Positions 4,023 to 63,807 of a DNA stretch of 64,000 nucleotides are shown piece by piece. Within the stretch, counting starts at the first letter, position 1. Every line of letters starts with the position of its first letter. A program made the position numbers and the translations under genes. This DNA is from a phage. The notes below the pieces were generated by a model that searched no databases, had not been told where the DNA came from, and saw only the letters and a list, made by a program, of their open reading frames with translations. The stretch lies in the sequence record PQ724394.1; one strand, 5' to 3'.

Positions 4023-4313
4023 TTATTTACGGAACGAGATAAAACCTGCGGCGGTCATTAATGGCTGCTTTTTAACAAAGACCGTGATAGAAATAGGAGC
4101 TTCAGATTCAAGCTGGCCGGTTACTACACCATTAAAGATATTTTCAGTTTGTTCGGGTTGTGAAAAATTTTCAACCGGGCGTAAGTCAAACTGTTTGTCT
4201 TTGCCGAAAACTCGACGTAATTCATTACCGACTGCACTGTCGAACTCTTCAGAAGCAGGGATAACGTTTTCAACTACCAGCTCTTGACCATTAAAACGGA
4301 ATGCAGATTTCAT
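4023..4313 (-). CDS. Hypothetical protein (96 aa) downstream of alt
   Basis: ORF preceded by GAGGAG RBS and a GTTTAC / TACTAT early-promoter-like cassette at about 4330-4370. Confidence 0.5.
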   Translation of the reverse strand: MKSAFRFNGQELVVENVIPASEEFDSAVGNELRRVFGKDKQFDLRPVENFSQPEQTENIFNGVVTGQLESEAPISITVFVKKQPLMTAAGFISFRK

Positions 4314-4370
4314 AATGTTCTCCTCATGTTTGTGTAAGGTAATAGTACCACATCCTTGTGGCGTTGTAAA

Positions 4371-6494
4371 CTACATTTTGAATTTATTTGATAAAGAAGA
4401 GATGTCCAAAGATGCAGCAAGGATTTCCATAGCCTCATTACTTTCTGAAACAGATTCTGAAACTAGGAATTCTTTAAACCCATTCATCAATTTAACTTCA
4501 CCGGTTTCCATCAGATGGTCGCCATCGTAAACGGATTCGCTGAGTTCTGAAGGAGATGTCACTGTAGCTTCCATAAGGTATTTGTGAGATACTCTATCAT
4601 TCATAGCAAAAGCCGCTACTTTATCAACCTTCAACAATAACCCGCGCGGAAGGATAATTTCCGCTTCTTCGGCATATTCTGTAAGGTCGCCAGGAGCGAT
4701 AACTTTAACTGCTTCAGCACCTCGAATAACCATACCAATTTCAGCAATCCTGTCTGCAGGGCCTTCAGGTGCAATTGGATTACCAAACTCGTCTTCTTCC
4801 CATTCTACCTCTTCGTCATCGACTTCACCTACGTCAGATGAACTACCACTGGCTAATTTAAACAACTCATCAGCGGAGGATAAAGAACCTTCATCACCGA
4901 CAAAAACTGCTTGGTTGTCGAGGGCCATATAATTTTTACCAAATTCGCCAAAGATATTAGGCTTTAATGAAGCGGACACAAAGTTCTTAAAGTAAAAGGT
5001 TTTGTTATCAATATTATGGCGCAGAATTTTGTATGGTAAATCCTGACCACGATACAAAATAGTACCCTTAGGAAGTTTAATACCCTTGGTAAATGCCGAG
5101 TCTAAATCCTTAATCAATTTAATAGCTGTTGTATTGTTTTCGGATTCAGGTTTACCTAAAAGGAATAAGTTCATAGGAGCATATTCAGCCGCACAATATT
5201 CAATAATGGCATTACTTTCGTCTTTGGTCAAGCCCTTAGGTTTAATGAGCTCGCCTGAATAAGCATATGCATCGCTAATAGAATCGTTAATCAGTTTATA
5301 AACGGCTTCCATAGCGAAAGCAATTCGAGATGCTTTCTCTGAAGGAGACCCCTGAAAACGGGCACTCAGGTTATTAACAATTCTCTTAATAATATCCAGA
5401 CTATTGGTAGTATTGATTTGAGAAAGACCGCTTAAAAGTCTATCGACTTCCGTATTAAAAAATGCCATATTATTAGAGTAAATTTCAAACCCTTGTTTAT
5501 CTCTATTAGCATAATTTAGTTTAAATTTACTATCAGTCATTAAAGCGTGCGTGAGAGCAATGGTGTATCTAAAGTTGGCAAGGTCCTCACTCTTAGATTT
5601 AAACTGAGAGGCCTGTCGCATTTTAGTAATAGAACCTTTTTTAAAGTTCTGGCTAATCTGCTCAATACCTTCGTTCTCAGGGCCTTCGGCCGAGTGAACA
5701 GGGACAGAAGCTTCAAACTCGTTATAAATCTGCAATTCTTTAGGTGATAAAGTTTCGGGTTCGGCAGTAGAATACTGCGCCGCTGCAGCCATACGACGGG
5801 AAATCTTAGTACGAGAAATAACAGCCTTATCGGTACGTTTCTCTTCAACCTGTGCAATAGATGCCGCTACGGCTTCTACTTTACTTACGGCCTGGCCGGT
5901 TTTCTTAGAAACATAAACTTCACCGACTTTAGACTCAACCTTGGTATAAAGGTCTGCATCAATTTCAGGCATACCCTTGATATCTTCGATATTAGAACCA
6001 CGACGTACTAAAAGAACGTAGGTATGTTTACCACTAAACTGGAACATATCATCGACAACTTTAAACTTACCACCGGTACGTGCCATCACCAAACGAGCTA
6101 ATACACGCTGAACGGTAGGACCCTTACCTTTCATTTTCTTGGTAGGGAAACGGAACAAAACTGCATCCATTTTAAGTTTGTTTACTTGTTCGTATACGGT
6201 ATCGAAAATAGTATTCAGTGTACCAAGTGGGTCAGAACCAAGCCCACCTTTGAGTTCAGCCGGAGCACCCTTGCTAGACAAACTCATTAAAATAATATGA
6301 ACGTATTTGTCGCCAGGCTTAACCATTTTAATAGCGTCTCCTTGAGACGCATAAGATACCATACGAGCAACCAGGTTATCATTACCTGGTGCTTGGATAG
6401 AGAAAATCTGTGGGATACCTGAGCCTGGCTTAAGATTTGTTACTGGATAGTTTTTAGCTGAATCACTATCAAAAACTTCGTTTAAATTTTCCAT
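4371..6494 (-). CDS. alt: Alt-type ADP-ribosyltransferase, paralog A (707 aa)
   Basis: N-terminal region conserved with the neighbouring paralog (LVARMVSYAS.GDAIK...LKGGLG); C-terminal R (YRGQ), S-x-S (FVSASL) and E-x-E (EEAEIILPRGL) motifs; position next to DNA ligase as T4 alt. Confidence 0.85.
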   Translation of the reverse strand: MENLNEVFDSDSAKNYPVTNLKPGSGIPQIFSIQAPGNDNLVARMVSYASQGDAIKMVKPGDKYVHIILMSLSSKGAPAELKGGLGSDPLGTLNTIFDTVYEQVNKLKMDAVLFRFPTKKMKGKGPTVQRVLARLVMARTGGKFKVVDDMFQFSGKHTYVLLVRRGSNIEDIKGMPEIDADLYTKVESKVGEVYVSKKTGQAVSKVEAVAASIAQVEEKRTDKAVISRTKISRRMAAAAQYSTAEPETLSPKELQIYNEFEASVPVHSAEGPENEGIEQISQNFKKGSITKMRQASQFKSKSEDLANFRYTIALTHALMTDSKFKLNYANRDKQGFEIYSNNMAFFNTEVDRLLSGLSQINTTNSLDIIKRIVNNLSARFQGSPSEKASRIAFAMEAVYKLINDSISDAYAYSGELIKPKGLTKDESNAIIEYCAAEYAPMNLFLLGKPESENNTTAIKLIKDLDSAFTKGIKLPKGTILYRGQDLPYKILRHNIDNKTFYFKNFVSASLKPNIFGEFGKNYMALDNQAVFVGDEGSLSSADELFKLASGSSSDVGEVDDEEVEWEEDEFGNPIAPEGPADRIAEIGMVIRGAEAVKVIAPGDLTEYAEEAEIILPRGLLLKVDKVAAFAMNDRVSHKYLMEATVTSPSELSESVYDGDHLMETGEVKLMNGFKEFLVSESVSESNEAMEILAASLDISSLSNKFKM

Positions 6495-12394: not shown

Positions 12395-12760
12395 TTAGAT
12401 ATCAAATTCATTCAGAACTACATCAAAGATTGCTTCCAGGTGTTCAGGTTTAGCACGGTTGCTCAGGATGTGACGAATCCAGGTTTTAACCAGAAGCTTA
12501 CGATTATCACCGTTCCAGCAAGGATGGGTACCTAAATCACGTTGACGGAAATCATCATCCAAAGCGATTTTAAAAGTAGAACCTTCCATAGTGATTGAAA
12601 CCGTGATACCATTTTCAAAGCGCATATAAACGTAGTTAGGAGTCATGCACTGTTCGATTTCGCACACTGTGCTGTTGTTGTGTTTCCACAGGCAAATAAC
12701 TTCAGAAGAACCAGCAATACCGTTAGAAACATATTTACGTTCGAAGTTGATGTAGTTCAT
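12395..12760 (-). CDS. Hypothetical protein (121 aa)
   Basis: ORF with GGAGA RBS; own early-promoter cassette upstream. Confidence 0.55.
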   Translation of the reverse strand: MNYINFERKYVSNGIAGSSEVICLWKHNNSTVCEIEQCMTPNYVYMRFENGITVSITMEGSTFKIALDDDFRQRDLGTHPCWNGDNRKLLVKTWIRHILSNRAKPEHLEAIFDVVLNEFDI

Positions 12761-12796
12761 TTTATTCTCCAGTTTGTTTTCGTATTATTTGGTACA
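12758..12796. repeat. 39-nt direct repeat copy 1 (5' leader/RBS/start of gene 12395-12760)
   Basis: Identical to 13201-13239. Confidence 0.8.
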
Positions 12797-12830
12797 GGTC
12801 TATAATAACACAACCTGTACCAAAGTAAAC
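12791..12830 (-). promoter_or_regulatory. Early-promoter stem-loop cassette (GTTTAC -35, 17 nt, TATTAT -10; stem GGTACAGG/CCTGTACC)
   Basis: Read on minus strand: GTTTAC at 12830-12825, TATTAT at 12807-12802; -10 sits in loop of an 8-bp inverted repeat. Confidence 0.55.
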
Positions 12831-12834
12831 CGTT

Positions 12835-13203
12835 TTATGCAACTTTAATCCAATTATCTAAATTTAATTCACCTTTGGCTTTCATTTTTTCGATCAGGTC
12901 ATCTGCAGTTATACGACCATTTTGATACCATGTAACATCTTCAGAATAACCAGTTTCTTCATCTTCATAGGTCTTACAACGAATCTTACCGGTTATGATA
13001 GTTTTCAGTTCGTAGGTATCACCGGTAAAAAAGTTTGTTACCAAAATTTTCCAAGAGAAGTCATCAGAAGGACCTTCAGGAGTCATACAACCTACAAATT
13101 CAAATTGTTCTTTGTACAAGCGCCATTGCATCTCTTTAGTTTCAATAGCTTTATAACCGTCGTGGTCTTTACATTTGATATATGAGTTAAGATTGATTTT
13201 CAT
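12835..13203 (-). CDS. Hypothetical protein (122 aa)
   Basis: ORF with GGAGA RBS; own promoter cassette. Confidence 0.55.
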   Translation of the reverse strand: MKINLNSYIKCKDHDGYKAIETKEMQWRLYKEQFEFVGCMTPEGPSDDFSWKILVTNFFTGDTYELKTIITGKIRCKTYEDEETGYSEDVTWYQNGRITADDLIEKMKAKGELNLDNWIKVA

Positions 13204-13239
13204 TTTATTCTCCAGTTTGTTTTCGTATTATTTGGTACA
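13201..13239. repeat. 39-nt direct repeat copy 2 (5' leader/RBS/start of gene 12835-13203)
   Basis: Identical to 12758-12796. Confidence 0.8.
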
Positions 13240-13244
13240 TGTCT

Positions 13245-13273
13245 ATAGTATCATGCCTACCGGAGATGTATAC
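13245..13273 (-). promoter_or_regulatory. Early-promoter-like cassette (GTATAC -35 variant, 17 nt, TACTAT -10)
   Basis: Family member of the repeated cassette; -35 is degenerate. Confidence 0.4.
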
Positions 13274-15927: not shown

Positions 15928-16481
15928 TAGATGGTCTCCAACTTAAGTTGTTTGGTAGTGGTAGCTTGGGTAACGTCGCCTTTAACAATATAACACACCT
16001 GTTGGAACGAACTGGTCAAAAGCTCTTCGGCTTGACGGTCGGCTTGTTCTTTTGTGTTATGGCGAGAATGAACTTCAATCTTACCATTTTTAACGATAAG
16101 CACTTTCCATTCAGCAGTGGCTTTTACCAGCTTAGGTTCATCATTTTCAGGAATACTCACCGAGGCCAGTGGACGTACTACTTCAATAAAGTAATCGAAT
16201 TCATGGCCAAAAAAGCCTGAGGAATTAAAAAGAACAGCATTTGCATCATCAGGATTACCTGTGATTTTGCTCGGGTCGACAAACATCATCTCGTCATATA
16301 CACGAATTCGGCTTACACGTTCACGCCCATTATGGTAATCAATTTCAACTTCAAACGGGTTCATACCTACATACTTGGCAAAAGCTGTATTGAGGCCATA
16401 AGCGCCGTTATTAGTGAATTTGTTTTTAGTGTATTCACTACCGAACTTATAAAACTTACGCTCTTCAAAGAACTTGCTCAT
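15927..16481 (-). CDS. Hypothetical protein (184 aa from internal ATG)
   Basis: Track ORF extends through a promoter-like cassette; ATG at 16481 follows ATGAGGAA RBS. Confidence 0.45.
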   Translation of the reverse strand: MSKFFEERKFYKFGSEYTKNKFTNNGAYGLNTAFAKYVGMNPFEVEIDYHNGRERVSRIRVYDEMMFVDPSKITGNPDDANAVLFNSSGFFGHEFDYFIEVVRPLASVSIPENDEPKLVKATAEWKVLIVKNGKIEVHSRHNTKEQADRQAEELLTSSFQQVCYIVKGDVTQATTTKQLKLETI

Positions 16482-16543
16482 TTCGATTTCCTCATTTGTT
16501 TCGGTAGGACTACTATACCACAGTCCTACCATGATGTAAACAC

Positions 16544-18460: not shown

Positions 18461-18918
18461 ACACCAAGCTCCTTATAAAGTTCTTCACGGCAGGTTTTAA
18501 GGATTTTACCAGTTTCATAAGCCGCACTTTCAGAAACATCACCAAGTGTAGCAGCAGCTTGCATTTGGCCATGGCGCTTAGCCGCATATTCAAAACTTTT
18601 TACCAGCTCACGAATACGTTCTTTTTCTTCGTGAAGTGATTGGTTTTCTTTATAGCACGCCGTAACATCTAAGATTGAATTCCACACATCAGAAGGAATA
18701 GGCTCGGACAATTTCAACACTCGGCTCGGGAAATCATTCCATGGGGCATAGTATTCAACTTCTGTAATAACTCCACCTTTACATTCTGTAATAAAAAATC
18801 GAGCTTTACCTTCCAAAGGTGTTTTACGGCAAGAACCAATTCGGGCCAGCTTTTGGAAGAATTCGTCTTTACACTTCATGATATTATTAGCGTTCTCAAC
18901 ATACCATAATATTTTCAT
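18457..18918 (-). CDS. Hypothetical protein (153 aa from internal ATG)
   Basis: Track start (18954) lies inside the -10 of the promoter cassette; ATG at 18918 has GAGGAA RBS. Confidence 0.5.
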
Positions 18919-18952
18919 GTCCAATTCCTCAATTTTTATAATCCGTAGGAGC

Positions 18953-18982
18953 ATTATACTCTGCTCCCAAGAGTTTGTAAAC
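18953..18982 (-). promoter_or_regulatory. Early promoter (GTTTAC -35, 18 nt, TATAAT -10)
   Basis: Minus strand GTTTAC at 18982-18977 and TATAAT at 18958-18953; -10 within a GGAGCAG/CTGCTCC stem-loop. Confidence 0.55.
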
Positions 18983-19726: not shown

Positions 19727-20214
19727 TTGGTAATAATCTCGATGATGTCATCACGTGACAGGGAGTTGATAAGAACCGTTTTAGGGTTTTCACACTGGAT
19801 TTTATACGTTTCGAACATCACGCACAATTCTTCAGCGGTATGGTAAGGGCTCGAAATGCCAAGGCGATTAAACTTATCGCTTAATGGGTCGCAAATCAAA
19901 TAGAATGTGATTCCAGCGATTTTGACATTAGGCTGACTGATATTAATGAATACCTCAGCATCATACTTGGAAAGGTTGTTTTGGAGAAACTCAACCATAG
20001 AGTTAACAGCTTCCGGCATGGCTTCACGCTTTTCTTCTGCATAACGGGTAGAGTATTCTTTTTGCTTAATTTTCTTTTTAGCATTTTTAGCTAAAGTAAC
20101 ACGAAGATCGGTTAGGTACCCTACTGCACGAGAACCTTTAAAAACTTGGATACCGTCAGTAGAGTCACCAAAAGCTTTAACAACCATTTCGTTGGTAATC
20201 ATTTGCATATTCAT
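19714..20214 (-). CDS. Hypothetical protein (166 aa); Alc-like by position and length
   Basis: T4 alc sits beside the pseT.x genes and is about this length; no motif support. Confidence 0.4.
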   Translation of the reverse strand: MNMQMITNEMVVKAFGDSTDGIQVFKGSRAVGYLTDLRVTLAKNAKKKIKQKEYSTRYAEEKREAMPEAVNSMVEFLQNNLSKYDAEVFINISQPNVKIAGITFYLICDPLSDKFNRLGISSPYHTAEELCVMFETYKIQCENPKTVLINSLSRDDIIEIITKCLN

Positions 20215-20244
20215 TTTGTTTTCTCCTCATTAGTTGGTAAGTCT

Positions 20245-20273
20245 ATACTAACACATCATGAGGAGATGTAAAC
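20245..20273 (-). promoter_or_regulatory. Early-promoter cassette (GTTTAC -35, 17 nt, TAGTAT -10)
   Basis: Family member upstream of 19714-20214, followed by GAGGAG RBS. Confidence 0.45.
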
Positions 20274-27757: not shown

Positions 27758-27997
27758 TCACGCTTTCTTAGCAACTTTCCAGTCGGCTTTAAATTGGTCA
27801 ACATCAGAATGGTGAATCCAGAAACCAGACGAGCTACCATCTTCATAAAGAGGACAACCATCACACTCATCTTTCCAGCCCATTTCACACAAAGCTTGTT
27901 CGGCTTTTTCCAGAGCTTCCGGATTGTTACCTTGGATTGTGAAGTACCATTTGCCTTTAACTTCAGAATCTTTAATTGATTCGCGTTGTAATTTCAT
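27758..27997 (-). CDS. Hypothetical protein (79 aa), Cys-containing
   Basis: ORF with RBS and promoter-like cassette upstream. Confidence 0.5.
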   Translation of the reverse strand: MKLQRESIKDSEVKGKWYFTIQGNNPEALEKAEQALCEMGWKDECDGCPLYEDGSSSGFWIHHSDVDQFKADWKVAKKA

Positions 27998-28055
27998 TTT
28001 ATTCTCCTCAAGTTGATAAGGCTATGGTAGTGATACTATAGCCTTAGGTAAACAC

Positions 28056-28283
28056 TTATTTTTGAATTAAGCCCATATAAAATTCAGCGTCTTCAGCATG
28101 CATACCATCGCAATATTCATCAGCCATAAAGCGGGTAAGGTCTTCAAGAGGACCTTGAACTTCAATTTGCATACTAAAGAATTGCGTATCTTTAATATAG
28201 GTCATAACTAAAGAAGGATAACGATTACGGATAACTTCGTAAGTGTATTCAAAATCAACGATATCAATATTAACTTTAGCCAT
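28056..28283 (-). CDS. Hypothetical protein (75 aa)
   Basis: ORF with ATGAGGAAAATAAA RBS and canonical cassette upstream. Confidence 0.5.
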
Positions 28284-28307
28284 TTTATTTTCCTCATGTA
28301 GTTGATA

Positions 28308-28341
28308 GGTCTATAGTATCATGCCTATAGACCTTGTAAAC
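28308..28341 (-). promoter_or_regulatory. Canonical early-promoter stem-loop cassette (GTTTAC -35, 17 nt, TACTAT -10; stem GGTCTATAG/CTATAGACC)
   Basis: Minus strand GTTTAC at 28341-28336, TACTAT at 28318-28313; 9-bp inverted repeat with 8-nt loop. Confidence 0.55.
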
Positions 28342-28988: not shown

Positions 28989-29357
28989 TTAAATTCCAAA
29001 GGTAGTTTTAATCAAGGCAACAACTTCTGCCGCATTTTTATGATTTACCTGCACATGAATGGTTTGGGTATCAACAGCAGGAGCATCGCCATCAACTTCT
29101 ATGAAGTGTTTGAATTCCCATTCAGCGAGTTCAAAATACTCGTCAGCATTATCATAAACAGACTTCAGGATGGTACCATCTTTCATTTCAACTTTTTCGA
29201 CAAAATAATCACCGTCGATATAACACATGTCCAGGACTTTAAAGGAATTGCCATGTTGTTCCATAATCTTAATCATACGCGAATTGTTAGCAGGACTACA
29301 AGCGATGAATTGTTTTTTGGCAGCAGGGTCTAATACGTAAAATTTACCAGTTTCCAT
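28989..29357 (-). CDS. Hypothetical protein, tandem paralog 2 (122 aa)
   Basis: Paralog of 28606-28986; own promoter cassette upstream. Confidence 0.5.
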   Translation of the reverse strand: METGKFYVLDPAAKKQFIACSPANNSRMIKIMEQHGNSFKVLDMCYIDGDYFVEKVEMKDGTILKSVYDNADEYFELAEWEFKHFIEVDGDAPAVDTQTIHVQVNHKNAAEVVALIKTTFGI

Positions 29358-29431
29358 TTTTATTTCCTCATGTAGTTGATAAGTCTATAGTATCATGTTT
29401 AAAGGAGTTGTAAACCATTAAATGCCAAAAA

Positions 29432-31675: not shown

Positions 31676-32623
31676 TTAATAAAAATCAGCTACTGTAGCA
31701 GTTAGTTTAGACAAACCTGATTTAACGAAATAAGGATAAACTTTAGATTTCGAAGGTTTGTTATACGTATTATATCTTTCAGTAATTAAAGCAACAATAT
31801 CATCTGGAATAAAGTCCATATCAATTAAGATTTGGTTTTCACAGAAACGTTCATATTGTTCCTCAGTAAGAAGTGTTTTAATTATATCATGGTCATAATA
31901 ATTCAGAGCAATTGCTTCAAGTTCCTTAGCACGAGTGCTAGGAGTACGTTCACCTTCAACCATTGTCAACCAATAATCACCACGAACTTTAATACTTGCA
32001 ACGTTATCCTTGCGGTCACCTTTAATAACCTTAGTCACACAATCAAGCAGAGCATCACCAGATTTTGTTTTGACGAATTTTTTCTGCATTGGAGACCATT
32101 GTTTTACGCCAGGGAATTTATGAAGTTGGGTAAAGTCACCATCAGAAGAACCAATCATAACCGGATGGCCTTTAGCTGTAAGGATACGAGTCAATACAGC
32201 AATATGGTCATCAGCCTCGATTGTATCGATATTCATAACAATATAAGGCATGTTTTGTTCAAGCTCATCCACAATAATATGCATTGCAGTGAATAAGCCT
32301 TCCCAATCAAATGGTGATTCGTCACGTGCCTTGGCACGGTTTTTCTTATAATAAGAAGAATAACGACGACGCCAATAACCTGATTTAGAGTTATCAACAC
32401 AAATGATTAGTTGGTTGTAACCTTGTTTTTTAAAGTCTTTAATGTTTTTCTTGATTGAATTCAACACGAGGTGTCGAAGCATTGCTGTGGTTACTTTAGG
32501 AAATCCAGCGTTTTCACCAAATTCTTGGAAGGCTGCCGCCATAATGATTTGGCTGAAATCCAGGAGTAAAAATCCGTCTTTTTGTTGGTCTTCTTCAGGA
32601 AGTAAAAAATCTAAATCGTTCAT
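31676..32623 (-). CDS. rnh: RNase H / 5'-3' exonuclease (FEN family)
   Basis: 315 aa; position and length as T4 rnh; acidic catalytic clusters. Confidence 0.85.
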   Translation of the reverse strand: MNDLDFLLPEEDQQKDGFLLLDFSQIIMAAAFQEFGENAGFPKVTTAMLRHLVLNSIKKNIKDFKKQGYNQLIICVDNSKSGYWRRRYSSYYKKNRAKARDESPFDWEGLFTAMHIIVDELEQNMPYIVMNIDTIEADDHIAVLTRILTAKGHPVMIGSSDGDFTQLHKFPGVKQWSPMQKKFVKTKSGDALLDCVTKVIKGDRKDNVASIKVRGDYWLTMVEGERTPSTRAKELEAIALNYYDHDIIKTLLTEEQYERFCENQILIDMDFIPDDIVALITERYNTYNKPSKSKVYPYFVKSGLSKLTATVADFY

Positions 32624-32654
32624 ATGAACCTCTGTCCAATTAGTGTAGAATGTT

Positions 32655-32683
32655 ATTATATCATGGCCCTGGAAGAAGTAAAC
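32655..32683 (-). promoter_or_regulatory. Early promoter for rnh (GTTTAC -35, 17 nt, TATAAT -10)
   Basis: Minus strand GTTTAC 32683-32678, TATAAT 32660-32655. Confidence 0.6.
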
Positions 32684-36699: not shown

Positions 36700-36707
36700 G
36701 AGGTATT

Positions 36708-37829: not shown

Positions 37830-37847
37830 GGAACCTTCGGGTTCCTT
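37828..37847 (+). terminator. Rho-independent terminator after gene 35 (UUCG hairpin + U-run)
   Basis: AAGGAACC-ttcg-GGTTCCTT followed by TTTCGTTTT. Confidence 0.65.
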
Positions 37848-43311: not shown

Positions 43312-43583
43312 AAATTGGAGGTATACATCATTAGATAACGGTGTATATCTTCATACCCTTCATTAAATTGCTCAATAAGAGTATCACGTTCATCTTCAGT
43401 TAAAGACTTAAAGAGTTTATTAAAAGATAGGCCATTAAGTTCCTTTCCATGTTCATTACGAATACCTAACTCATTCAAAAAGGCAATAAACTCATCACGA
43501 CGTTGCATGATGTCTTCACAATCCGTTTTAATCAAAATGGAAACAATAGTAGCAATTTCGGAAACGATTTCAATTTTAGTCAT
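43308..43583 (-). CDS. asiA: Anti-sigma-70 factor AsiA
   Basis: 91 aa; ..FIAFLNELGI...LTEDERDTLIEQFNEGYEDIHRYLMMYT matches T4 AsiA. Confidence 0.9.
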   Translation of the reverse strand: MTKIEIVSEIATIVSILIKTDCEDIMQRRDEFIAFLNELGIRNEHGKELNGLSFNKLFKSLTEDERDTLIEQFNEGYEDIHRYLMMYTSNF

Positions 43584-43641
43584 TTTAATTTACTCAAGTA
43601 TTCAATAGGACATTCATTTATTCAGTAAGAATATTGTAACA

Positions 43642-43893
43642 CTATTCTTCTAGATTGTACACATGATTTTTCATCCGTACAACATATTCCTGATACATTT
43701 CTTCAATAGGTTCCTGGAACTTAAAATCAGCTCCTAGGAATTCCTCAAAGCACTCCTGCTCACGTGTACGCATACCTGTTACGGTATTCTCTAAGTTATG
43801 ACTCATAGCCTTTACCCTTATGTTTCTGCTTACGCTTAGACTCTTTAAAATTTTTCTTCTTGTCCTTATGGACCGAAGCCTTATTGAAATCAT
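43642..43893 (-). CDS. Hypothetical protein (83 aa; may start at internal ATG 43806)
   Basis: ORF; first ATG 2 nt after upstream stop, internal ATG has AGGG RBS. Confidence 0.4.
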   Translation of the reverse strand: MISIRLRSIRTRRKILKSLSVSRNIRVKAMSHNLENTVTGMRTREQECFEEFLGADFKFQEPIEEMYQEYVVRMKNHVYNLEE

Positions 43894-45359: not shown

Positions 45360-45992
45360 TTAAATTGCGTTGGTTACGGTTTTGATAACTTCAGATGATA
45401 CGTTTTGGAAGTCGATATAAGTATTCTTACCACCAGTCTTAATCTTAACATCAAGATTCAAGGAAGTAAACACTTGTTTTTCTTTATCAGTCATATTATA
45501 ACCGAAGATACGCATCATTCCGTCACGACGGACTTCGATTTGACGAATACCGTTGGTACGTTTAGCGAATCGAACTTCAAGATTGCTACGGTTTTCAGCG
45601 ATTTCACGAATCTCGATACGGTCTTCTAACAAAGATTTAACTTCATCAGCCAATACCACCATTTCAGGAGTAACACCACGCGAACTGCGAGTTTTACGTT
45701 TTTCCAACATCTCTGGAGCATTTTCAGAAGCGAACAGGTCAGCAGCTTTTTGAACTAGGTCCATTGCTTCACCCGTAGCCACCAGTCCATCACCAGATTT
45801 TTCGATGAATCCTTTCTTAATCAATACACCGATGTTAGAGTTAACTACCGCTGCACTAAATTGTTCACTCAGGGCTTCACGGACTTCGCCTGAAGTGATG
45901 AAGTTATTCTTGATGATATGTACTAAGATAGAAGCCGTTTTTTCATTCAGGACGTCTTCAGAAGCTTTGATGATATAAGTAATTTTAGACAT
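45360..45992 (-). CDS. motA: Middle-transcription activator MotA
   Basis: MSKITYIIKASEDVLNEKTASIL...VVNSNIGVLIKKGF.EKSGDGL matches T4 MotA; ATG at 45992 with GGAG RBS (track start is upstream inside promoter). Confidence 0.9.
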   Translation of the reverse strand: MSKITYIIKASEDVLNEKTASILVHIIKNNFITSGEVREALSEQFSAAVVNSNIGVLIKKGFIEKSGDGLVATGEAMDLVQKAADLFASENAPEMLEKRKTRSSRGVTPEMVVLADEVKSLLEDRIEIREIAENRSNLEVRFAKRTNGIRQIEVRRDGMMRIFGYNMTDKEKQVFTSLNLDVKIKTGGKNTYIDFQNVSSEVIKTVTNAI

Positions 45993-46026
45993 TTTAATCT
46001 CCGATAACCATTTATTTGATAGGTCT

Positions 46027-46055
46027 ATAGTATCATGTTTAAAGCAGAAGTAAAC
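46027..46055 (-). promoter_or_regulatory. Early-promoter cassette for motA (GTTTAC -35, 17 nt, TACTAT -10)
   Basis: Minus strand GTTTAC 46055-46050, TACTAT 46032-46027; TGCTTTA element at 46046-46040. Confidence 0.55.
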
Positions 46056-46093: not shown

Positions 46094-46321
46094 TTACTTA
46101 ATGTTCAGATTACGAACTTCGATTTCGTCTTCAGGGGCAAAATCAAACTGTTTGAATTCTGTGTCACCTTTAAATTTAAAAATCATTGTGAAGAAAGTCA
46201 GAACACCGGGTTTTTCTTCACGAACTCCACAGATATCATATTCAATACCATCTACAACCAGTTTGTTAGCAGTCAGAGCATTTTTAGCTTTAACGATTTC
46301 GTTTTCGATTTTAAATTTCAT
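46094..46321 (-). CDS. Hypothetical protein (75 aa)
   Basis: ORF with GGGAGA RBS and cassette upstream. Confidence 0.5.
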   Translation of the reverse strand: MKFKIENEIVKAKNALTANKLVVDGIEYDICGVREEKPGVLTFFTMIFKFKGDTEFKQFDFAPEDEIEVRNLNIK

Positions 46322-46368
46322 TTTTGTATCTCCCGGTTGTTTGTTTCAGTTCATTTATTTGATAGGTC

Positions 46369-46398
46369 TATAGTATCATGTTTAAAGCAGATGTAAAC
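46369..46398 (-). promoter_or_regulatory. Early-promoter cassette (GTTTAC -35, 18 nt, TACTAT -10)
   Basis: Near-identical copy of the motA cassette. Confidence 0.55.
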
Positions 46399-48313: not shown

Positions 48314-48762
48314 TAGTAAGCCTGCAGAACGAATTTGAAGTTATCGGCCAACATGCGGTTCATTTCTTCCAGAGTCTGAAGGTCGGAACTATGGTTGCGA
48401 GTGAAAGCCATTGCAATTTGACCTTTACCAAAGCCTGTGGTCAGTGGTTTCATTTTAGAAGCTGGCACATAAAGAACTTCGTACAGAACACCATTTACGG
48501 CCATGGTACGAGCTGATTGTGAACGTTTCTTACGAATGTTAGCCACGATACCATCAAGACCTTGAGCTGAACGTTGGTTGCCGACATAAAAACGAGCGGC
48601 TACGACACGAGAATCTGCTTCACCTTTAACAAAGAAGTAGAAGCCGGGCTGAGCCGAGATTTCTTTAGAAGGCTTACCATTTTGGTATTCGCCATTCTTA
48701 ACATAAGCAACAGTAGTAGCACCAGCAGACAGAACGTTACCGCGAGTCATATAAGTATTCAT
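48313..48762 (-). CDS. ndd: Nucleoid disruption protein Ndd
   Basis: 149 aa; ..[12 protein letters not shown]...RKKRSQ.ART.A...[24 protein letters not shown]...[21 protein letters not shown] matches T4 Ndd. Confidence 0.9.
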
Positions 48763-48803
48763 ATCAATTTCCTCAGTAGATTAATGTTTTGTTATCCAGT
48801 CAA

Positions 48804-48840
48804 CGAGAACCATTATAACATGATTCTCGAGGTTGTAAAC
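48804..48840 (-). promoter_or_regulatory. Early promoter for ndd (GTTTAC -35, 17 nt, TATAAT -10 in loop of CGAGAA/TTCTCG stem)
   Basis: Minus strand GTTTAC 48840-48835, TATAAT 48817-48812. Confidence 0.6.
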
Positions 48841-49596: not shown

Positions 49597-49707
49597 TCAG
49601 AAGTTAAAGAATACACGTACATGGTCAATCATAAAAACTATTGGGAAAATGCTCAATACTACTAACAACACAAACATATTCCAAATTGCTTTAAGTAAGT
49701 TTTTCAT
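49597..49707 (-). CDS. Small hydrophobic peptide (36 aa), not in ORF track
   Basis: MKNLLKAIWNMFVLLVVLSIFPIVFMIDHVRVFFNF; GGAGATGATT RBS; directly downstream of cassette 49734-49762. Confidence 0.4.
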   Translation of the reverse strand: MKNLLKAIWNMFVLLVVLSIFPIVFMIDHVRVFFNF

Positions 49708-49733
49708 AATCATCTCCATTAGTTGATAGGTCT

Positions 49734-49762
49734 ATAATATCATGTCTAATGGAGATGTAAAC
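49734..49762 (-). promoter_or_regulatory. Early-promoter cassette (GTTTAC -35, 17 nt, TATTAT -10)
   Basis: Minus strand GTTTAC 49762-49757, TATTAT 49739-49734. Confidence 0.55.
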
Positions 49763-49987: not shown

Positions 49988-50254
49988 TCAAAATACAACC
50001 TCTTTTATCTCAATCAAACCACGGTGCAATGCAGTGCGGAGGTCGTAAAGAATATCTATACCATCAACATTATCCAGCTTGCCATCAATAAGCTTTTTTA
50101 AATCTTCCTTTGATGCAATCAACGGGCGAAGAAATTTACATTCAGAAAGAGATAACTCTGTAGTAACATTATCACCTTCACCTGATGCATCATACATAGC
50201 GGCAACAACCATACCCGTAACTTTGTGTTTAGCGTAATATAATTTGATATCCAT
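49988..50254 (-). CDS. Hypothetical protein (88 aa from internal ATG)
   Basis: ATG 50254 with GAGGAG RBS; track start lies in promoter cassette. Confidence 0.45.
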   Translation of the reverse strand: MDIKLYYAKHKVTGMVVAAMYDASGEGDNVTTELSLSECKFLRPLIASKEDLKKLIDGKLDNVDGIDILYDLRTALHRGLIEIKEVVF

Positions 50255-50326
50255 TTTGTTCTCCTCATTAGTTGATAGGAAGATAGTAACACCATCCATG
50301 GCGTATGTAAACACTTATTTTAAAAA

Positions 50327-54776: not shown

Positions 54777-55086
54777 TTTTAACTACCTCATGTTGAACAT
54801 ATTCTCTGGTAGAACCCAGTTCAGCCAGAATTCTTCTCATAGAACCCATTGTACTTTTGTGCTCTCTGTGGCGATACAATATCTCTAAAACCTTTTCCTG
54901 GACAACAGGAGAGAGTGCCTGGTTATCTTTAATCTTTAAGGCAATAGATTTTACAGCCTTGAGATATTCTAGTCCCTTACCGCTCGTAATCACTACTCCT
55001 TCATCTTTACAGTTACGAATGGCAGTCTCCATAAAAGACAAAGCCAAGTTATCAGTATTCACTATACTATTATCTTGCATAATCAT
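54763..55086 (-). CDS. Hypothetical protein (107 aa)
   Basis: ORF. Confidence 0.45.
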   Translation of the reverse strand: MIMQDNSIVNTDNLALSFMETAIRNCKDEGVVITSGKGLEYLKAVKSIALKIKDNQALSPVVQEKVLEILYRHREHKSTMGSMRRILAELGSTREYVQHEVVKNDKL

Positions 55087-55141
55087 ATTCTCACCTCTTA
55101 GAGAATCGTATCACACTTTTAATCTGTTGTAAACCCCGAAA

Positions 55142-58131: not shown

Positions 58132-58342
58132 TGTAAGTTTCCTTCCAGAAGTCGGTGCCTTCAGCAGTGATTTCACGGAACACTGCATAGATAGGATTTT
58201 TATCACCTTGATTTTCGTATACATAAACCGACGATAAATGAGAAAACGTATCAGAATGTTCCTTTTGAACCACGATTAAATCAGGGTTGAACAGAACATC
58301 TTCAAATTCTTCACGAGTCGAGTTCACAGTAACTTTAGCCAT
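58124..58342 (-). CDS. Hypothetical protein (72 aa)
   Basis: ORF with cassette upstream. Confidence 0.45.
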   Translation of the reverse strand: MAKVTVNSTREEFEDVLFNPDLIVVQKEHSDTFSHLSSVYVYENQGDKNPIYAVFREITAEGTDFWKETYNA

Positions 58343-58415
58343 TTTATTTTCCTCTCATTTGTTGATAGGGTAATCTTATCACTACCCTACCGTATTGTAT
58401 ACTGTTTTTTAACCT

Positions 58416-58979
58416 TTATGCACGGTGAATGTTAGCATATTCAACAATAAAGCTTTCAGGAACAACCTTAAAGGTTCCAAGGAACACGATGTTATAGAGC
58501 TTAACGCCACCTTCAACCCACTGGTCTGTGATGTAACCAGACATGCTACTGGTTTCGTAAGTACCAAAAGGTTCGTCAACATATTTGAACGGTTTAGGAG
58601 TATTAAAACACACTCCTCGACCTAATTTCCATTTGAAATCAACGCCAACATGAGACTGGTCGATGGTTTCAACGTCTTGAGCTACTACGCCGCGAATATC
58701 ATTGCTTTCACATACATACCCATCATGGGATTCAACTTCTTCAACCACTGGGGTATGAACAAGTTCAGGAACTATTGGACGCGCTTTCCAGCCCTTAGGA
58801 ATCAAAGTGACATGGCGTTCTTTAACATAACCTACAATTGAAGAAACGAAACCACTGGAACGAAATGCCTGGACTTTAACAAGACCACGAGAGAAATTGA
58901 ATCCAATAATAATACATTTTTTACCAGCAACTTTAGATTTAGAATCTTCGGAAACCGTTACGATATCACCAATTTTCAT
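58416..58979 (-). CDS. Hypothetical protein (187 aa), shares C-terminal domain with next gene
   Basis: C-terminus ..ITDQWVEGGVKLYNIVFLGTFKVVPESFIV similar to 59057-59806 C-terminus. Confidence 0.5.
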   Translation of the reverse strand: MKIGDIVTVSEDSKSKVAGKKCIIIGFNFSRGLVKVQAFRSSGFVSSIVGYVKERHVTLIPKGWKARPIVPELVHTPVVEEVESHDGYVCESNDIRGVVAQDVETIDQSHVGVDFKWKLGRGVCFNTPKPFKYVDEPFGTYETSSMSGYITDQWVEGGVKLYNIVFLGTFKVVPESFIVEYANIHRA

Positions 58980-59056
58980 AATATTACCTTTTGTTTAGGA
59001 ATTAGGTTTATTCTCCATAAGAGCCATTATAACATGGCCCTCGATAAAGTAAACTA

Positions 59057-59808: not shown

Positions 59809-60312
59809 TTATCTCATTTCAATAAAATCTACGAGTTCAGCATGGGATTTGCGGAACATTACTTGGCGGTCACCAATGACTACCTCATCTTCAGGTATTT
59901 CGTAAACAGCAAGATAGAATCCTTTAGAAGATAATTCTTCGCGCTCTTCATGAGTGAACCAGCGCATCATATCATACTCGCTGGCAAAAGCAAAATGGTA
60001 GAGGTTAACAAACCAACCCGGAATATAATCGTCACAGTCTTCATAATCGGGTCGTTTCCACTTAGTTCTAATGGCTTTATTAGAATTTTCTACCAACAAC
60101 TTATCTTGACTTGGTAGTGGGATATTTTTATTAATGCTATGATGATGTCTAAAAATAGGTCTGTCTAAACCTACTTCCAATAACCAGCCTTCACTCCATG
60201 AGTCTGTTGTACTTCTATACGGGGTCATTTGAGTACAGAGGTCTCGTCGTATTGTGATAGCGTTTCCATCATCTAAGATACTGAACGATGACTCAACTCG
60301 ATAAATTTTCAT
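59809..60312 (-). CDS. Hypothetical protein (167 aa); MotB-like position
   Basis: ORF immediately downstream of dexA; position only. Confidence 0.4.
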   Translation of the reverse strand: MKIYRVESSFSILDDGNAITIRRDLCTQMTPYRSTTDSWSEGWLLEVGLDRPIFRHHHSINKNIPLPSQDKLLVENSNKAIRTKWKRPDYEDCDDYIPGWFVNLYHFAFASEYDMMRWFTHEEREELSSKGFYLAVYEIPEDEVVIGDRQVMFRKSHAELVDFIEMR

Positions 60313-60372
60313 TTTGTTCTCCTCATGTTGATAGGGTAGATAATATCATGTCATGAGGAGAAGTAAACACTT

Positions 60373-62919: not shown

Positions 62920-63669
62920 TTAACCTCTAATCAGTGAAAAAATTGAAGCATTCAGCGGAAGACCTTTTTTCAACTTCAATTTGTCAATAAAAGAAAGGTG
63001 TTCTAAACGCTCCAGACCTTGAATAATTTTATCATACATATCGTAACGCGTTTCTGCTTCAGACAATTTAAACTTGACACGCCAATCAGGTCCACCAATT
63101 AAAGATTTAAGACCTTTTTCCATAGTACCGATTGAAGCGTTAGAACCATGGATACGGGCCTTAACTGCGATAACAGAAGGGGTCTTATCGGTAGCTCCCG
63201 ATTTAATAAGGTCTTTAAGACGTTTTTCACGTTTTTTAAGACCTCTTTGGGTATCTTTAATATTTTTAACGATTTTACGAATTTTATAATAGTTATCAGG
63301 AGTAACTTTAAAACTATTAGGCATTTTAGAACTACCTGAAATACGAACTGCTAAACGAGTCTGGGCACGTTTCAGTTCATCAAGGGACAAATCGGCACGT
63401 AAGCTGTTATACTTAACTTTAACTGGGATTACATTACCCTCAATATAGCCGATATCGTTGTTAAAACGTTCAAATGAAATCTTATCATTAACTGAATTTT
63501 CATCAAAGTACTCGCCCGAATAAGCGCACACTTTTTGTTCGAGAAGTCTACGAACATACTTACTAGACAGATTGAAGTCCTTACCGCGTTTATAAGCAGA
63601 AGCTTTGGTGTGTTTGCGGCGGTTGTAAACCTTTAACTCAAATTCATCGTTAGTTTTAATAGTAGGCAT
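62920..63669 (-). CDS. Hypothetical basic protein (249 aa); Srd-like by position and length
   Basis: Position upstream of dda as T4 srd and similar length; no motif support. Confidence 0.45.
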   Translation of the reverse strand: MPTIKTNDEFELKVYNRRKHTKASAYKRGKDFNLSSKYVRRLLEQKVCAYSGEYFDENSVNDKISFERFNNDIGYIEGNVIPVKVKYNSLRADLSLDELKRAQTRLAVRISGSSKMPNSFKVTPDNYYKIRKIVKNIKDTQRGLKKREKRLKDLIKSGATDKTPSVIAVKARIHGSNASIGTMEKGLKSLIGGPDWRVKFKLSEAETRYDMYDKIIQGLERLEHLSFIDKLKLKKGLPLNASIFSLIRG

Positions 63670-63807
63670 GATATTTTTCTCATCTTACGGACGATTAGTT
63701 GATAGGTCTATAGTATCATGTTGCTTAATAAAGTAAACACTTTTTTGCTTTAAATTTTCAACGGTATAATGAATCAAGGACTTTGCCTTTCAATTAAACC
63801 GGGTGGT

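Follow-up and report, generated by a model that had tools for sequence, protein, structure and literature searches.

Putative early-promoter cassettes and their spacer hairpins in a JS98-like phage

Early-promoter units of T4-type phages

Several described elements of T4-type phages combine an early promoter with RNA signals. PeSLs, units of an early promoter, a stem-loop and an RBS, are catalogued for RB49/phi1, PST/T4 and nt-1/KVP40 (Arbiol et al. 2010, PMC2839356; Comeau et al. 2014, PMC4122927), and the accessible text of the later paper gives TTTACW-N17-TAYWAT as the PST/T4 promoter consensus (Comeau et al. 2014, PMC4122927). Their promoter activity and terminator/attenuator activity were assayed with lacZ fusions, and mini-circle formation was examined by inverse PCR; JS98 enters there only through a mention of 'PeSL-like sequences' close to gene 43 (PMC2839356). 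The early promoters of T4 have an architecture of UP, -35, TGn and -10 elements (Hinton 2010, PMC2988021), and early genes carry the RegB/S1 cleavage consensus, GG*AGRAYARAA, where their translation is initiated (Durand et al. 2006, cited in PMC3014915). In addition, T4 e, soc, 49 and I-TevI hide their Shine-Dalgarno sequence (SD) by pairing it with a 5' strand located ahead of the proximal promoter's start site; the long read-through transcripts are untranslatable, and the transcripts of the proximal promoter are translated (PMC3014915).

The stretch of DNA analysed here, 64,000 nucleotides of sequence record PQ724394.1 (the window), comes from a Dhakavirus, a JS98-like T4-type coliphage, and JS98 is ~95% identical to it. 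Dhakaviruses are a group used in phage therapy work. The window carries 21 cassettes that belong to known element types, PeSLs and T4 early promoters, and extend the PeSL architecture of the RB49, T4 and KVP40 groups to the JS98 group. They share the PeSL layout, in which an AT-rich tract is followed by the -35 and -10, with a stem-loop between these, overlapping the -10 or just upstream, and then by the SD and the start codon. Like T4 early promoters, they combine UP, -35, TGn and -10, with an activity that is predicted here from sequence, and the genes that follow them include immediate-early ones for host takeover (motA, asiA, alc, ndd, motB, srd). T4 itself has early-type promoter motifs at matching positions upstream of srd, motB.2 and motB; its GenBank record has no promoter features. 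The likeness has limits. The ~12 nt conserved after the -10 in about half of the copies (AGACCTATCAAC) exceed what a promoter is known to need, and the stems are not of the GC-rich GN-loop-CN type found in RB49 PeSLs. Moreover, some cassettes of the window use the SD as the 3' arm of the hairpin, a class that is not discussed in the 2010 paper, where the words 'sequester' and 'translation' are absent (PMC2839356), and of which we found no mention in the accessible text of the 2014 paper (PMC4122927).

We consider it very likely that the cassettes are sigma-70 early promoters joined to a short leader and a strong RBS, that is, immediate-early modules of the T4-early-promoter/PeSL kind. Host RNA polymerase would bind the AT-rich tract, GTTTAC, TGn and TAnnAT right after DNA entry, and the transcript would start ~7 nt past the -10, leaving a leader of roughly 20-25 nt. 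Both the promoter activity and the start sites are deduced from homology and consensus.

Copies, leaders and downstream genes

The strict motif GTTTAC-N16-18-TAYWAT has 14 exact matches in the window against 0.28 expected, all 14 on the minus strand. This bears out the recurrence of a GTTTAC-17 nt-TACTAT module reported in a preliminary description of this DNA, whose motif coincides with the PST/T4 consensus in the accessible text of PMC4122927. Named by the G of their -35, the sites listed there are 4371, 12830, 13273, 18982, 20273, 28053, 28341, 29415, 46055, 46398, 48840, 49762, 50312, 58402, 60368 and 63738, and a relaxed scan with the motif recovers all 16. Relaxed and profile scans add five (16541, 32683, 43662, 55134 and 59054), so that the family has 21 copies, every one on the minus strand. 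In a search of the window, a profile made from 20 copies retrieves the 21st at E=2e-5, and the plus strand yields no credible cassette. A generic sigma-70 scan of the region is not enriched over shuffles (62 matches vs 57.6 expected; 56 vs 56.1); enrichment is confined to the phage-specific motif. The terminator scan was not above shuffles either and served only to locate individual terminators, and no family reached its gathering score in an Rfam search of the whole window.

All 21 cassettes have a sigma-70-like -35 and -10 with a spacer of 17 or 18 nt, the SD and start codon of the downstream gene at their 3' end, and a gene start directly downstream. The -35 hexamer is GTTTAC in 17, GTATAC in three and GTGTAC in one; the -10 follows TAnnAT in 20, the exception being TATAGT at 16541; and TGn is found in 18. 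The 20 nt upstream of the -35 are 75% AT, compared with 61% for the window overall, with an A-run in the consensus. Several copies have weak hexamers (GTATAC, GTGTAC, TAAGAT, TACGAT, TACCAT). In the cassette upstream of frd.3 (28281..28341, minus strand), the -35 GTTTAC occupies 28341-28336, TGn and the -10 TACTAT follow (-10 at 28318-28313), the SD GAGGA lies at about 28295-28291 and the ATG at 28283. The cassettes had been described as at least 15 near-identical copies. Their recurrence stands, with 21 copies, but near-identity does not: over the stretch that begins at the -35 and ends 16 nt beyond the -10, pairwise identity averages 56% (range 31-98%), and in the spacer 42%. Likewise, only about half of the copies have the sequence CAACTAATGAGGA(G/A)AA proposed to precede the start codon, or one very similar to it, and the block after the -10 (AGACCTATCAAC) is also conserved in about half. 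Cassette positions are orthologous in all seven relatives, each of which has 19-21 copies.

The genes behind the cassettes come from a list that was curated by comparison with the annotations of JS98, dhaeg and MN04. Half of them are classical early genes (alc, asiA, motA, ndd, motB, srd). The minus-strand placement given in the preliminary description is correct, but the genes are not mainly accessory genes of unknown function: they include alc, asiA, motA, ndd, motB, cef, srd and rnh. Nor do cassettes mark the boundaries of nearly every small unknown ORF, since only 18 of the 89 minus-strand junctions carry one; each cassette thus heads a multi-gene unit. The result is a map of 21 putative early transcription-unit starts in Dhakavirus, with several gene starts corrected. 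In every copy that contains it, the ATG inside ATGAGGA, suspected of producing false N-terminal extensions, stands 14 or 16 nt upstream of the true start and always out of frame, so that it cannot extend the gene. False in-frame starts do occur in five cassettes, at other codons: 16532/16592, 18954 (the ATG of TATAATG), 46076, 49713/49719 and 50299/50314.

The leaders of a subset of cassettes match the 11-nt RegB/S1 consensus known from T4, here a likeness in sequence alone. GGAGRAYARAA is exact in five of the 21 cassette genes and matched with at most one mismatch in eight, compared with none of the 70 other minus-strand genes (p = 2e-6); in the other 13 cassettes the fit is poor. The exact matches include the SD of 28053 (GGAGAATAAAA), that of 60368 and that of 50312 (GGAGAACAAAA; 50252..50312, upstream of an unnamed ORF and without a significant hairpin). 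The motA cassette is in the set with at most one mismatch, and T4 motA mRNA is a known RegB target. JS98 encodes regB, and the gene lies outside the window. Where the RBS of a cassette matches the RegB/S1 consensus, the promoter and a predicted shut-off signal would travel as one unit. RegB with ribosomal protein S1 would cut the GGAGRAYARAA leaders and switch expression off within minutes. Such cleavage, like every hairpin role discussed below, is what we infer.

Hairpins formed by the promoter spacer

In ~60% of the copies, the promoter spacer has its complement further downstream. Folds are significant in 10 of the 21 copies at z <= -2.4 and in three more at z between -1.8 and -2.2, and the 5' arm of the significant hairpins (~10-13 copies) lies within the spacer. 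The preliminary description placed the -10 inside an inverted repeat. This holds for 7-8 copies; elsewhere, 3-4 copies pair the spacer with the SD and 7-8 have no significant repeat. Stem sequences vary among the cassettes.

At 28341, 10-bp arms at 28334-28325 (AGGTCTATAG) and 28316-28307 (CTATAGACCT) give an RNA fold of -15.4 kcal/mol (z = -4.64). Hairpins spanning the -10 are found at 12830 (12758..12830, upstream of 30.7; 12-13 bp, 12824-12812 / 12800-12788, z = -3.99), at the unlisted copy 16541 (16479..16541, upstream of orf212, profile E = 1.9e-5; GGTAGGACT / AGTCCTACC, 9-12 bp, z = -2.70), at 18982 (18916..18982, upstream of an unnamed ORF whose true start is probably the ATG at 18918; TGGGAGCA / TGCTCCTA, z = -2.43) and at 28053 (27995..28053, upstream of frd.1, -10 TACCAT; 9 bp, z = -2.46). 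Others are at 58402 (58340..58402, upstream of cef, GTATAC ... TAAGAT; 11 bp, z = -4.49), at the unlisted copy 59054 (58977..59054, upstream of motB; 9 bp with one G-U pair, z = -3.85) and, with borderline significance, at 48840 (48760..48840, upstream of ndd; CGAGAATCAT / ATGGTTCTCG, 9-10 bp with one G-U pair, z = -1.88). Cassette 4371 (4311..4371, upstream of alt.-3) has a small hairpin inside the spacer (GCCACA/TGTGGT, z = -1.78). No U-run follows the hairpins that span the -10, and therefore they are not canonical intrinsic terminators.

In a second class the 3' arm is the SD. It comprises 20273, 49762 and 60368 (9-12 bp, z from -3.8 to -5.5) together with 13273 (8 bp). Cassette 20273 (20212..20273, upstream of alc, z = -3.78) pairs TCTCCTCAT at 20266-20258 with ATGAGGAGA at 20230-20222 over 9 bp; cassette 49762 (49705..49762, upstream of a small ndd.4-like ORF, z = -5.47) pairs CATCTCCATTAG at 49757-49746 with CTAATGGAGATG at 49722-49711 over 12 bp; and cassette 60368 (60310..60368, upstream of motB.2, z = -5.42) pairs TTCTCCTCATG at 60362-60352 with CATGAGGAGAA at 60327-60317 over 11 bp. 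At 13273 (13201..13273, upstream of 30.8, -35 GTATAC), TCTCCGGT pairs with ACTGGAGA through one G-U pair (z = -2.18), and an intrinsic terminator at 13319-13296 precedes the cassette. The JS98 regB and denV cassettes have the same pairing, as do many more in viral contigs. Cassette 60368 is the positional counterpart of a T4 early-type promoter motif at about 8.2 kb.

The hairpins might be incidental, that is, by-products of a biased spacer composition or of recent duplication or gene conversion. Eight copies have no significant hairpin, pyrimidine-rich spacers are common after the -35, so that anti-SD runs could partly reflect composition, and several copies share sequence through common descent. 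However, spacers pair better with their own partner than with swapped partners, a control that keeps composition and shared motifs: in the window, spacer and own downstream region reach -10.0 kcal/mol against -6.8 kcal/mol with those of other cassettes (permutation p = 5e-5), and 77 non-redundant viral-contig cassettes, a sample selected for GAGGAGAA and hence not unbiased for early promoters, give -7.28 against -5.55 kcal/mol (p = 2e-4). Among these 77, 19 spacers contain an anti-SD 5-mer where 2.7 are expected, although a reversed-k-mer control for anti-SD content is uninformative, its k-mers being common to control and test set; SD-complementary runs of at least 10 nt number five against 1.3 expected (p = 0.005, permutation). 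Perfect 13-15 nt examples with covarying flanks exist in the viral contigs. Covariation links the SD flanks to the spacer in at least eight sequence versions, with CATG, CTAAT, CTACA, ACTG, CATAAA, CAACTA, AGAAAA and AACCA each having a match in its own spacer, and motB.2 and alc keep the hairpin in distant phages with different sequences. An incidental origin is, in our judgement, distinctly unlikely.

Alternatively, the inverted repeats could act in DNA, with cruciform or hairpin extrusion at the -10 modulating opening or seeding recombination breaks. The arms bracket the -10 in 7-8 copies, and PeSL stem-loops form in single-stranded DNA during sequencing reactions, with one crossover inside a loop (PMC2839356). 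The predicted stems at 13273, 18982, 48840 and 59054, however, need G-U pairs, which are available to RNA only, there being no G-T pairing in DNA. Furthermore, with loops of 23-27 nt (~42 nt in 13273) the spacer:SD class is ill suited to cruciforms, and its 3' arm tracks the translation signal, the covariation following the SD flank. These features make a role in DNA quite improbable. Still less probable, and close to negligible, is that the repeats are operators at which a dimeric phage or host protein shuts off the early promoters. The repeats do overlap the -10, a classical repressor position, and the shut-off of T4 early promoters is not fully understood (PMC3014915). Yet one third of the copies have no repeat, and both register and arms vary from copy to copy (AGGTCTATAG, TAAGGCTAT, TTTGGTACAGGT, GGTAGGGTAGT, GGTAGGACT, TTCTCCTCATG and others), so that there is no common recognition sequence. 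The operator reading was rejected together with that of a MITE-like mobile element, given arms without a common sequence and positions orthologous in all relatives.

We favour roles for the hairpins in RNA. Since its 5' arm precedes the site where the cassette's own transcript starts, the hairpin could form only in read-through RNA. A hairpin whose 3' arm covers the -10 would attenuate read-through, or else cap the message from upstream at its 3' end. With the SD as the 3' arm, both translation and RegB cleavage would be blocked on read-through RNA. Our tentative proposal, plausible but somewhat less than an even prospect, is that genes of the spacer:SD class are translated only from the mRNA of their own early promoter, and that read-through RNA folds the SD into a helix of 9-15 bp that shields GGAG from RegB. 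The arrangement resembles the gate of T4 e, soc, 49 and I-TevI, in which the SD likewise pairs with a strand upstream of the gene's own start site. There, an internal late promoter delays expression; here, the promoter is early and the effect is predicted from sequence and covariation. With an early instead of a late promoter inside the hairpin, the gate would work as a mirror image and, if it exists, would restrict certain proteins to the opening minutes of infection. The covarying hairpin suggests a simple link of translation to promoter choice, one that could be reused in synthetic circuits. An SD-hiding hairpin at early promoters may be new, as we found none described in the accessible papers.

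An ordinary terminator tends to lie directly upstream of copies without a hairpin. A terminator stands there in five of the 21 copies, namely in four of the eight hairpin-less ones and in one of the 13 with a hairpin, a marginal difference (p = 0.047), and four copies have neither a significant hairpin nor an adjoining terminator. Cassette 29415 (29355..29415, upstream of frd.2a) has no significant promoter hairpin and adjoins an intrinsic terminator at 29449-29427. An intrinsic terminator at 55156-55139 abuts the -35 of the unlisted copy 55134 (55084..55134, upstream of an unnamed ORF, -10 TACGAT, profile E = 1.4e-4). The hairpin at 63738 (63667..63738, upstream of srd) is not significant (z = -1.04). 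Two unlisted copies have hairpins that are plausible by eye or duplex energy and were rejected as no better than shuffles: 43662 (43581..43662, a weak copy upstream of asiA, GTGTAC ... TACAAT, profile E = 5.8e-5; z = +0.89) and 32683 (32621..32683, ahead of rnh, where rnh and gene 34 diverge; z = -0.31).

Gene slots and breakpoints between relatives

The two most similar cassette pairs, with identical runs of 40 nt and 39 nt, each flank one gene. Cassettes 12830 and 13273 have a 39-nt identical 5'UTR in common, and cassettes 46055 (45990..46055, upstream of motA, with a 17-bp hairpin at 46091-46054 abutting the -35) and 46398 (46319..46398, ahead of the orf253 slot, with an intrinsic terminator before it at 46440-46418) have a 40-nt identical block in common. 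30.8 and orf253 are thus single-gene slots, each flanked by identical cassette repeats of 39-40 nt. Both are replaced in relatives, one by an allele 39% identical in protein and the other by an unrelated ORF, and homology resumes exactly at the cassette edges. In the orf253 slot, the crossover with JS98 falls after the -10 and before the SD of cassette 46398. As in PeSLs, then, some copies flank genes exchanged between close relatives. Repeated homologies of 40-100 nt would also make the cassettes occasional crossover points for a gene between two copies.

A stronger form of the PeSL model holds that the cassettes are mainly mobile recombination modules, whose repeats are there to promote the excision and insertion, as mini-circles, of the genes between them, and that this drives most of the change in early-region gene content. 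The two replaced slots agree with this, and the crossover in the orf253 slot falls in the same zone as mapped PeSL mini-circle junctions (PMC2839356). In addition, one relative has a chimeric alc cassette that joins two cassette types, and the same hairpin cassette occurs at non-orthologous loci, before different genes, in different phages. Nine breakpoint clusters fall in cassette intervals, where a uniform model predicts 1.6 (p = 2e-5), and nine of 18 cassette junctions have a breakpoint compared with 13 of 71 others (p=0.009). However, cassette junctions are larger, and for that reason the excess vanishes: after size correction, cassettes account for 39% of breakpoints against 29% expected (p = 0.2), no stronger an association than at equal-sized other gene junctions. 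Fourteen of the 23 junction breakpoints fall at junctions without a cassette, half of the cassettes are free of breakpoints, and cassette positions are orthologous and stable in seven of seven relatives. Selection on the promoter alone would also make homology resume at the cassette. The breakpoint statistics were computed with and without phage 04086, which is poorly annotated and has many private events, and a gap in dhabil was ignored, as that record ends inside the ligase-to-gene-31 stretch. The sole apparent cassette-to-cassette deletion, 46055 to 46358 in dhaeg, was excluded as a possible assembly artefact because it lies at the linear ends of the record, with two cassette copies 59 nt apart across the join.

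We therefore regard the strong mobile-module model as unlikely. The proposal that cassettes are recombination joints for accessory genes fits two slots exactly, 30.8 and orf253, without a general excess of breakpoints. These data temper the PeSL shuffling model: some swaps occur via cassettes, which are not hotter than other gene boundaries.

Several further likenesses and differences among phages were seen at single copies. The spacer of cassette 4371 recurs in a T4 early-type promoter motif upstream of rIIA.1, and the stem of cassette 16541 also precedes alc in T4-group contigs. Cassette 18982 is a near-copy of the T4 early-type promoter motif before motB, with one compensatory change in the stem. 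At 59054, homology with relatives ends at 59004, within the cassette, and a variable gene slot at 49777-49923 adjoins cassette 49762. Between cassette 58402 and its ATG, relatives have insertions of 77-104 nt.

A family of early-promoter cassettes

The 4-kb stretch around the focal cassette (28281..28341, minus strand, upstream of frd.3) matches Dhakavirus phages in a sequence search, with Escherichia phage dhaeg on top (97.1%) and JS98 and JS10 at ~95%. Gene names were taken from the JS98 annotation. Baseplate genes 29/48/54 open the window. Its two long minus-strand blocks, the first with alt.-3, alt, 30 to 30.9, rIII, 31, cd, pseT, alc, rnlA, denA, nrdB/A, td, frd, 32, 59, 33, dsbA and rnh, the second with asiA, arn, motA, 52, ndd, denB, rIIB, rIIA, 39, cef, motB, dexA, dda and srd, are separated by tail-fibre genes 34-38 and t on the plus strand.

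The focal cassette is built as the preliminary description had claimed, with the -35 at 28341-28336, TACTAT at 28318-28313, ATG at 28283, and a 10-bp inverted repeat, AGGTCTATAG/CTATAGACCT, that encloses the first half of the -10. A strict scan of the window for GTTTAC-N16-18-TAYWAT found 14 matches, all on the minus strand, where shuffles expect 0.28. Relaxing it (one -35 mismatch, any TAnnAT) recovered all 16 sites originally listed and added 32683, 43662, 55134 and 59054, and a profile HMM from 20 copies found one more, 16541 (E = 1.9e-5), so that the family now counts 21 members, each named by the position of its -35 G. The profile found no credible copy on the plus strand of the window. 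Every one of the 21 runs up to the start codon of a gene on the minus strand.

The observation is therefore real, with corrections. The copies had been called near-identical, but pairs of them share on average 56% of positions, and only 42% within the spacer; CAACTAATGAGGAG or a near variant is present in only about half of them. Cassettes do not bound nearly every small ORF, since only 18 of the 89 minus-strand gene junctions carry one, and each cassette therefore heads a several-gene unit. The ATG of ATGAGGA, held responsible for false N-terminal extensions, is always out of frame, 14 or 16 nt 5' of the true start, and thus cannot extend a gene. In-frame false starts within cassettes 16541, 18982, 46055, 49762 and 50312 use other codons. 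Below cassette 18916-18982, the longest ORF would start at ATG 18954, which belongs to the -10 box TATAATG, and dhaeg_37 is the dhaeg annotation of the equivalent 165-aa ORF; ATG 18918 with its GAGGA Shine-Dalgarno (SD), giving 153 aa, is the likelier start. Mechanical ORFs 15927-16592, 45360-46076, 49597-49719 and 49988-50314 cross the four other cassettes and begin at an in-frame ATG, GTG or TTG 5' of an SD-preceded start, which gives orf212, motA, the ndd.4-like ORF and the ORF below 50312 false extensions of 4-37 codons.

In the alignment consensus an A-rich tract precedes GTTTAC; a spacer of 17/18 nt with TGn at its end comes next, then TAyTAT, followed in about half of the copies by AGACCTATCAAC. 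TGn is present in 18/21 copies, and AT content reaches 75% in the 20 nt 5' of the -35 (window, 61%). The cassettes are thus built like T4 early promoters, with UP, -35, TGn and -10 elements (PMC2988021). They also fit TTTACW-N17-TAYWAT, the promoter consensus published for promoter-early stem-loop (PeSL) elements of the PST/T4 pair (PMC4122927). The same motif lies 5' of srd, motB.2 and motB in the T4 genome, and seven Dhakavirus relatives carry cassettes at the same positions as the window, 19-21 per homologous stretch. The genes headed include the classical immediate-early alc, asiA, motA, ndd, motB, cef and srd, beside unnamed ORFs. A generic sigma-70 scan showed no enrichment, and the signal is therefore specific to the phage's own motif. 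Consensus, TGn, AT-rich tract and T4 motif positions all agree with the proposed identity; judged by sequence, these are PeSL-type early-promoter cassettes.

The ~12 nt of AGACCTATCAAC, 3' of the -10 and across the predicted start site, are conserved in ~8-10 copies (e.g. 28312-28301) beyond what -10 or SD function explains. A processing site, a preference in the initial transcribed sequence, or gene conversion that recently took place among cassettes could account for them.

In a subset of cassettes the ribosome-binding part resembles a target of RegB. For strong RegB/S1 sites the published consensus is GG*AGRAYARAA (Durand et al. 2006, cited in PMC3014915). We sought it in the 22 nt that precede the start codons of the 21 cassette genes and of 70 other minus-strand genes. 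It occurs exactly in 5/21 cassette genes (30.7, 30.8, frd.1, the ORF below 50312, motB.2) and with at most one mismatch in 8/21, motA included; none of the other 70 has it in either form (Fisher p = 4e-4 exact, 2e-6 with ≤1 mismatch). Judged by consensus, with this enrichment and with regB encoded by JS98, the cassette seems to join a promoter that is on at once to a signal for rapid shut-off.

Hairpins and their predicted role

Twenty cassettes were folded from -35 to ATG and compared with dinucleotide shuffles. Ten gave z ≤ -2.4 (12830, 16541, 18982, 28053, 28341, 58402, 59054, 20273, 49762, 60368) and three lay between -1.8 and -2.2 (13273, 48840, 4371), while 7/20 were not significant. Cassette 55134, left out of the folding, was counted as hairpin-less because its duplex with its own partner reaches only -1.0 kcal/mol and its best helix is 4 bp. 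In all significant copies except 4371 the 5' arm lies within the promoter spacer. In 7-8 copies the 3' arm overlaps the -10 or comes immediately after it, and the inverted repeat originally described around the -10 is confined to these; across the family the arrangement is not uniform. In 3-4 copies the 3' arm is instead the SD with its 5' flank. These spacer:SD hairpins precede alc (20273; TCTCCTCAT/ATGAGGAGA), the ndd.4-like ORF (49762; CATCTCCATTAG/CTAATGGAGATG), motB.2 (60368; TTCTCCTCATG/CATGAGGAGAA) and 30.8 (13273; TCTCCGGT/ACTGGAGA).

Stem sequences vary between copies. In a control that retains composition and shared motifs, spacers form stronger duplexes with the downstream region of their own cassette than with those of the others (-10.0 vs -6.8 kcal/mol, permutation p = 5e-5). 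In addition, the profile-only copy 16541 has a -10-spanning hairpin, which is independent confirmation. An intrinsic-terminator-like hairpin abuts the -35 of five copies (13273, 29415, 46055, 46398, 55134), four of which belong to the eight hairpin-less ones (Fisher p = 0.047). The terminator hairpin 5' of 46398 (46418-46440; AAGGAACCTTCGGGTTCCTT) scores as terminator-like on both strands.

Pairing is also retained between phages. At motB.2, both arms differ between Dhakavirus and the T4-group (TCCTCGGT(T)AG/CTACTGAGGA), yet they pair in each. Upstream of alc the element itself differs by phage: it is a spacer:SD hairpin, a chimeric cassette keeping that hairpin, a spacer-internal hairpin, a -10-spanning hairpin whose stem is also that of the orf212 cassette in the window, or a terminator type. 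The regB and denV cassettes of JS98 carry another spacer:SD version, TCTCCTGTAG/CTACAGGAGA. In viral contigs, at least 120 stretches fit the pattern GTTTAC-N17/18-TAYWAT-N8-24-GAGGAGAA; this sample was chosen on SD sequence, and its frequencies are therefore not unbiased. Among 77 non-redundant cassettes, 19 have 5 nt or more of anti-SD sequence in the spacer, immediately 3' of the -35 (shuffles: mean 2.7, maximum 10), and own partners again pair better than others (-7.28 vs -5.55 kcal/mol, p = 2e-4). Complementary runs of at least 10 nt number 5 against 1.3 expected (p = 0.005); some reach 13-15 nt uninterrupted, and in these SD flank and spacer covary.

If transcription starts ~7 nt past the -10, the cassette's own transcript would lack the 5' arm, and with -10-spanning hairpins both arms. 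A role in RNA would therefore have to concern read-through transcripts from upstream; T4 early transcripts do run on into downstream genes (PMC2988021). G-U pairs in several stems favour a role in RNA over one in DNA. The -10-spanning hairpins match the description by the PeSL authors, who showed with a reporter that one such stem-loop attenuates or terminates transcription (PMC2839356). In the window no U-run follows these stems, and they might equally well cap the 3' end of the upstream message.

The nearest parallel to the spacer:SD class comes from T4 e, soc, 49 and I-TevI, which are controlled by a late promoter within the 5' strand of an SD-hiding helix (PMC3014915). Here the promoter is early, and translation would come solely from the gene's own early transcript. 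GGAG has been reported as shielded from RegB by RNA structure (PMC3014915). The words "sequester" and "translation" are absent from the 2010 PeSL paper (PMC2839356), no SD-sequestering class was noticed in the available part of the 2014 one (PMC4122927), and the T4 review gives only late-promoter cases of such helices (PMC3014915). The spacer:SD hairpins may form an early-promoter translational gate, with covariation in its support.

Cassettes and gene exchange

The window was aligned and chained to the homologous stretch of seven relatives. Its early regions hold 33 breakpoint clusters without phage 04086 and 62 with it; that record is poorly annotated, and statistics are given both ways. Breakpoints gather at gene junctions generally (p = 4e-11 vs a uniform model). 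They occur at 9/18 cassette and 13/71 other junctions without phage 04086 (p = 0.009), and at 10/18 and 24/71 with it (p = 0.08). Cassette junctions are longer targets than the others. Corrected for size, their share of junction breakpoints is 39% vs 29% expected (p = 0.2); against spacers of 40 nt or more that hold no cassette, the counts are 9/18 vs 4/14.

The qualitative evidence for swaps is stronger than these statistics. The two most similar cassette pairs of the window are neighbours flanking one gene each, 46055/46398 around orf253 (40 identical nt) and 12830/13273 around 30.8 (39 nt). Compared with JS98, the flanks of both slots are 100% identical through the cassettes and the ORF between them is replaced, 30.8 by an allele with 39% protein identity and orf253 by an unrelated ORF. 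The left crossover of the orf253 slot falls between -10 and SD, the zone to which PeSL mini-circle junctions were mapped (PMC2839356). Selective conservation of promoters would also make homology resume at cassettes. Similar cassettes also stand at non-orthologous loci: 18982, which has one compensatory change in its stem, resembles the T4 motif 5' of motB, the 4371 spacer the motif 5' of T4 rIIA.1, and 16541 the alc promoter in T4-group contigs. These likenesses point to occasional exchange. The swaps and the shared cassettes indicate that cassettes serve as crossover sites. Their proposed status as recombination joints holds in part, with two cassette-bounded swaps and no significant excess over other gene boundaries after size correction.

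Several further differences were seen at cassettes. The ends of the linear dhaeg record (MN850609.1) fall exactly between the cassettes of motA and the orf253 slot (window 46055-46358). Across the join, two copies of the cassette stand 59 nt from each other and orf253 is absent, owing either to a genuine deletion from cassette to cassette or to a repeat that collapsed in assembly. Beside cassette 49762, a variable slot (49777-49923) holds a 43-aa ORF without its own cassette, missing from JS98 and MN04; dhaeg, CLBP2 and dhabil have a different 314-nt insert there with its own cassette. Phage 04086 (OR842557.1) has ~440 extra nt between frd.3 and frd.1 (window 28007-28074) and a different cassette before frd.1, GTATAC...TACAAT with SD GGAGAATAAAA, on which we do not rely because of the poor annotation.

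Tail-fibre genes 34-38 (35120-42442) are the most divergent part of the window, at ~71% identity to dhaeg, CLBP2 and dhabil or unalignable between flanks of 93-96%, the usual host-range mosaic. Within the second of two tandem alt paralogues (6498-8582), which cross-match at ~71% identity, JS98 and MN04 have other sequence in place of a 482-nt segment (7330-7813). At the motB.1 position, the ORF (59057-59806) has 249 aa, compared with ~183 aa in 7/7 relatives; ~242 nt at its 5' end (59559-59802) have no counterpart in the relatives, which have 41-46 nt at this place. Between 30.9 and rIII, the 354 nt of 13486-13840, without an annotated gene in JS98, dhaeg and MN04, form the longest non-coding gap of the early regions.
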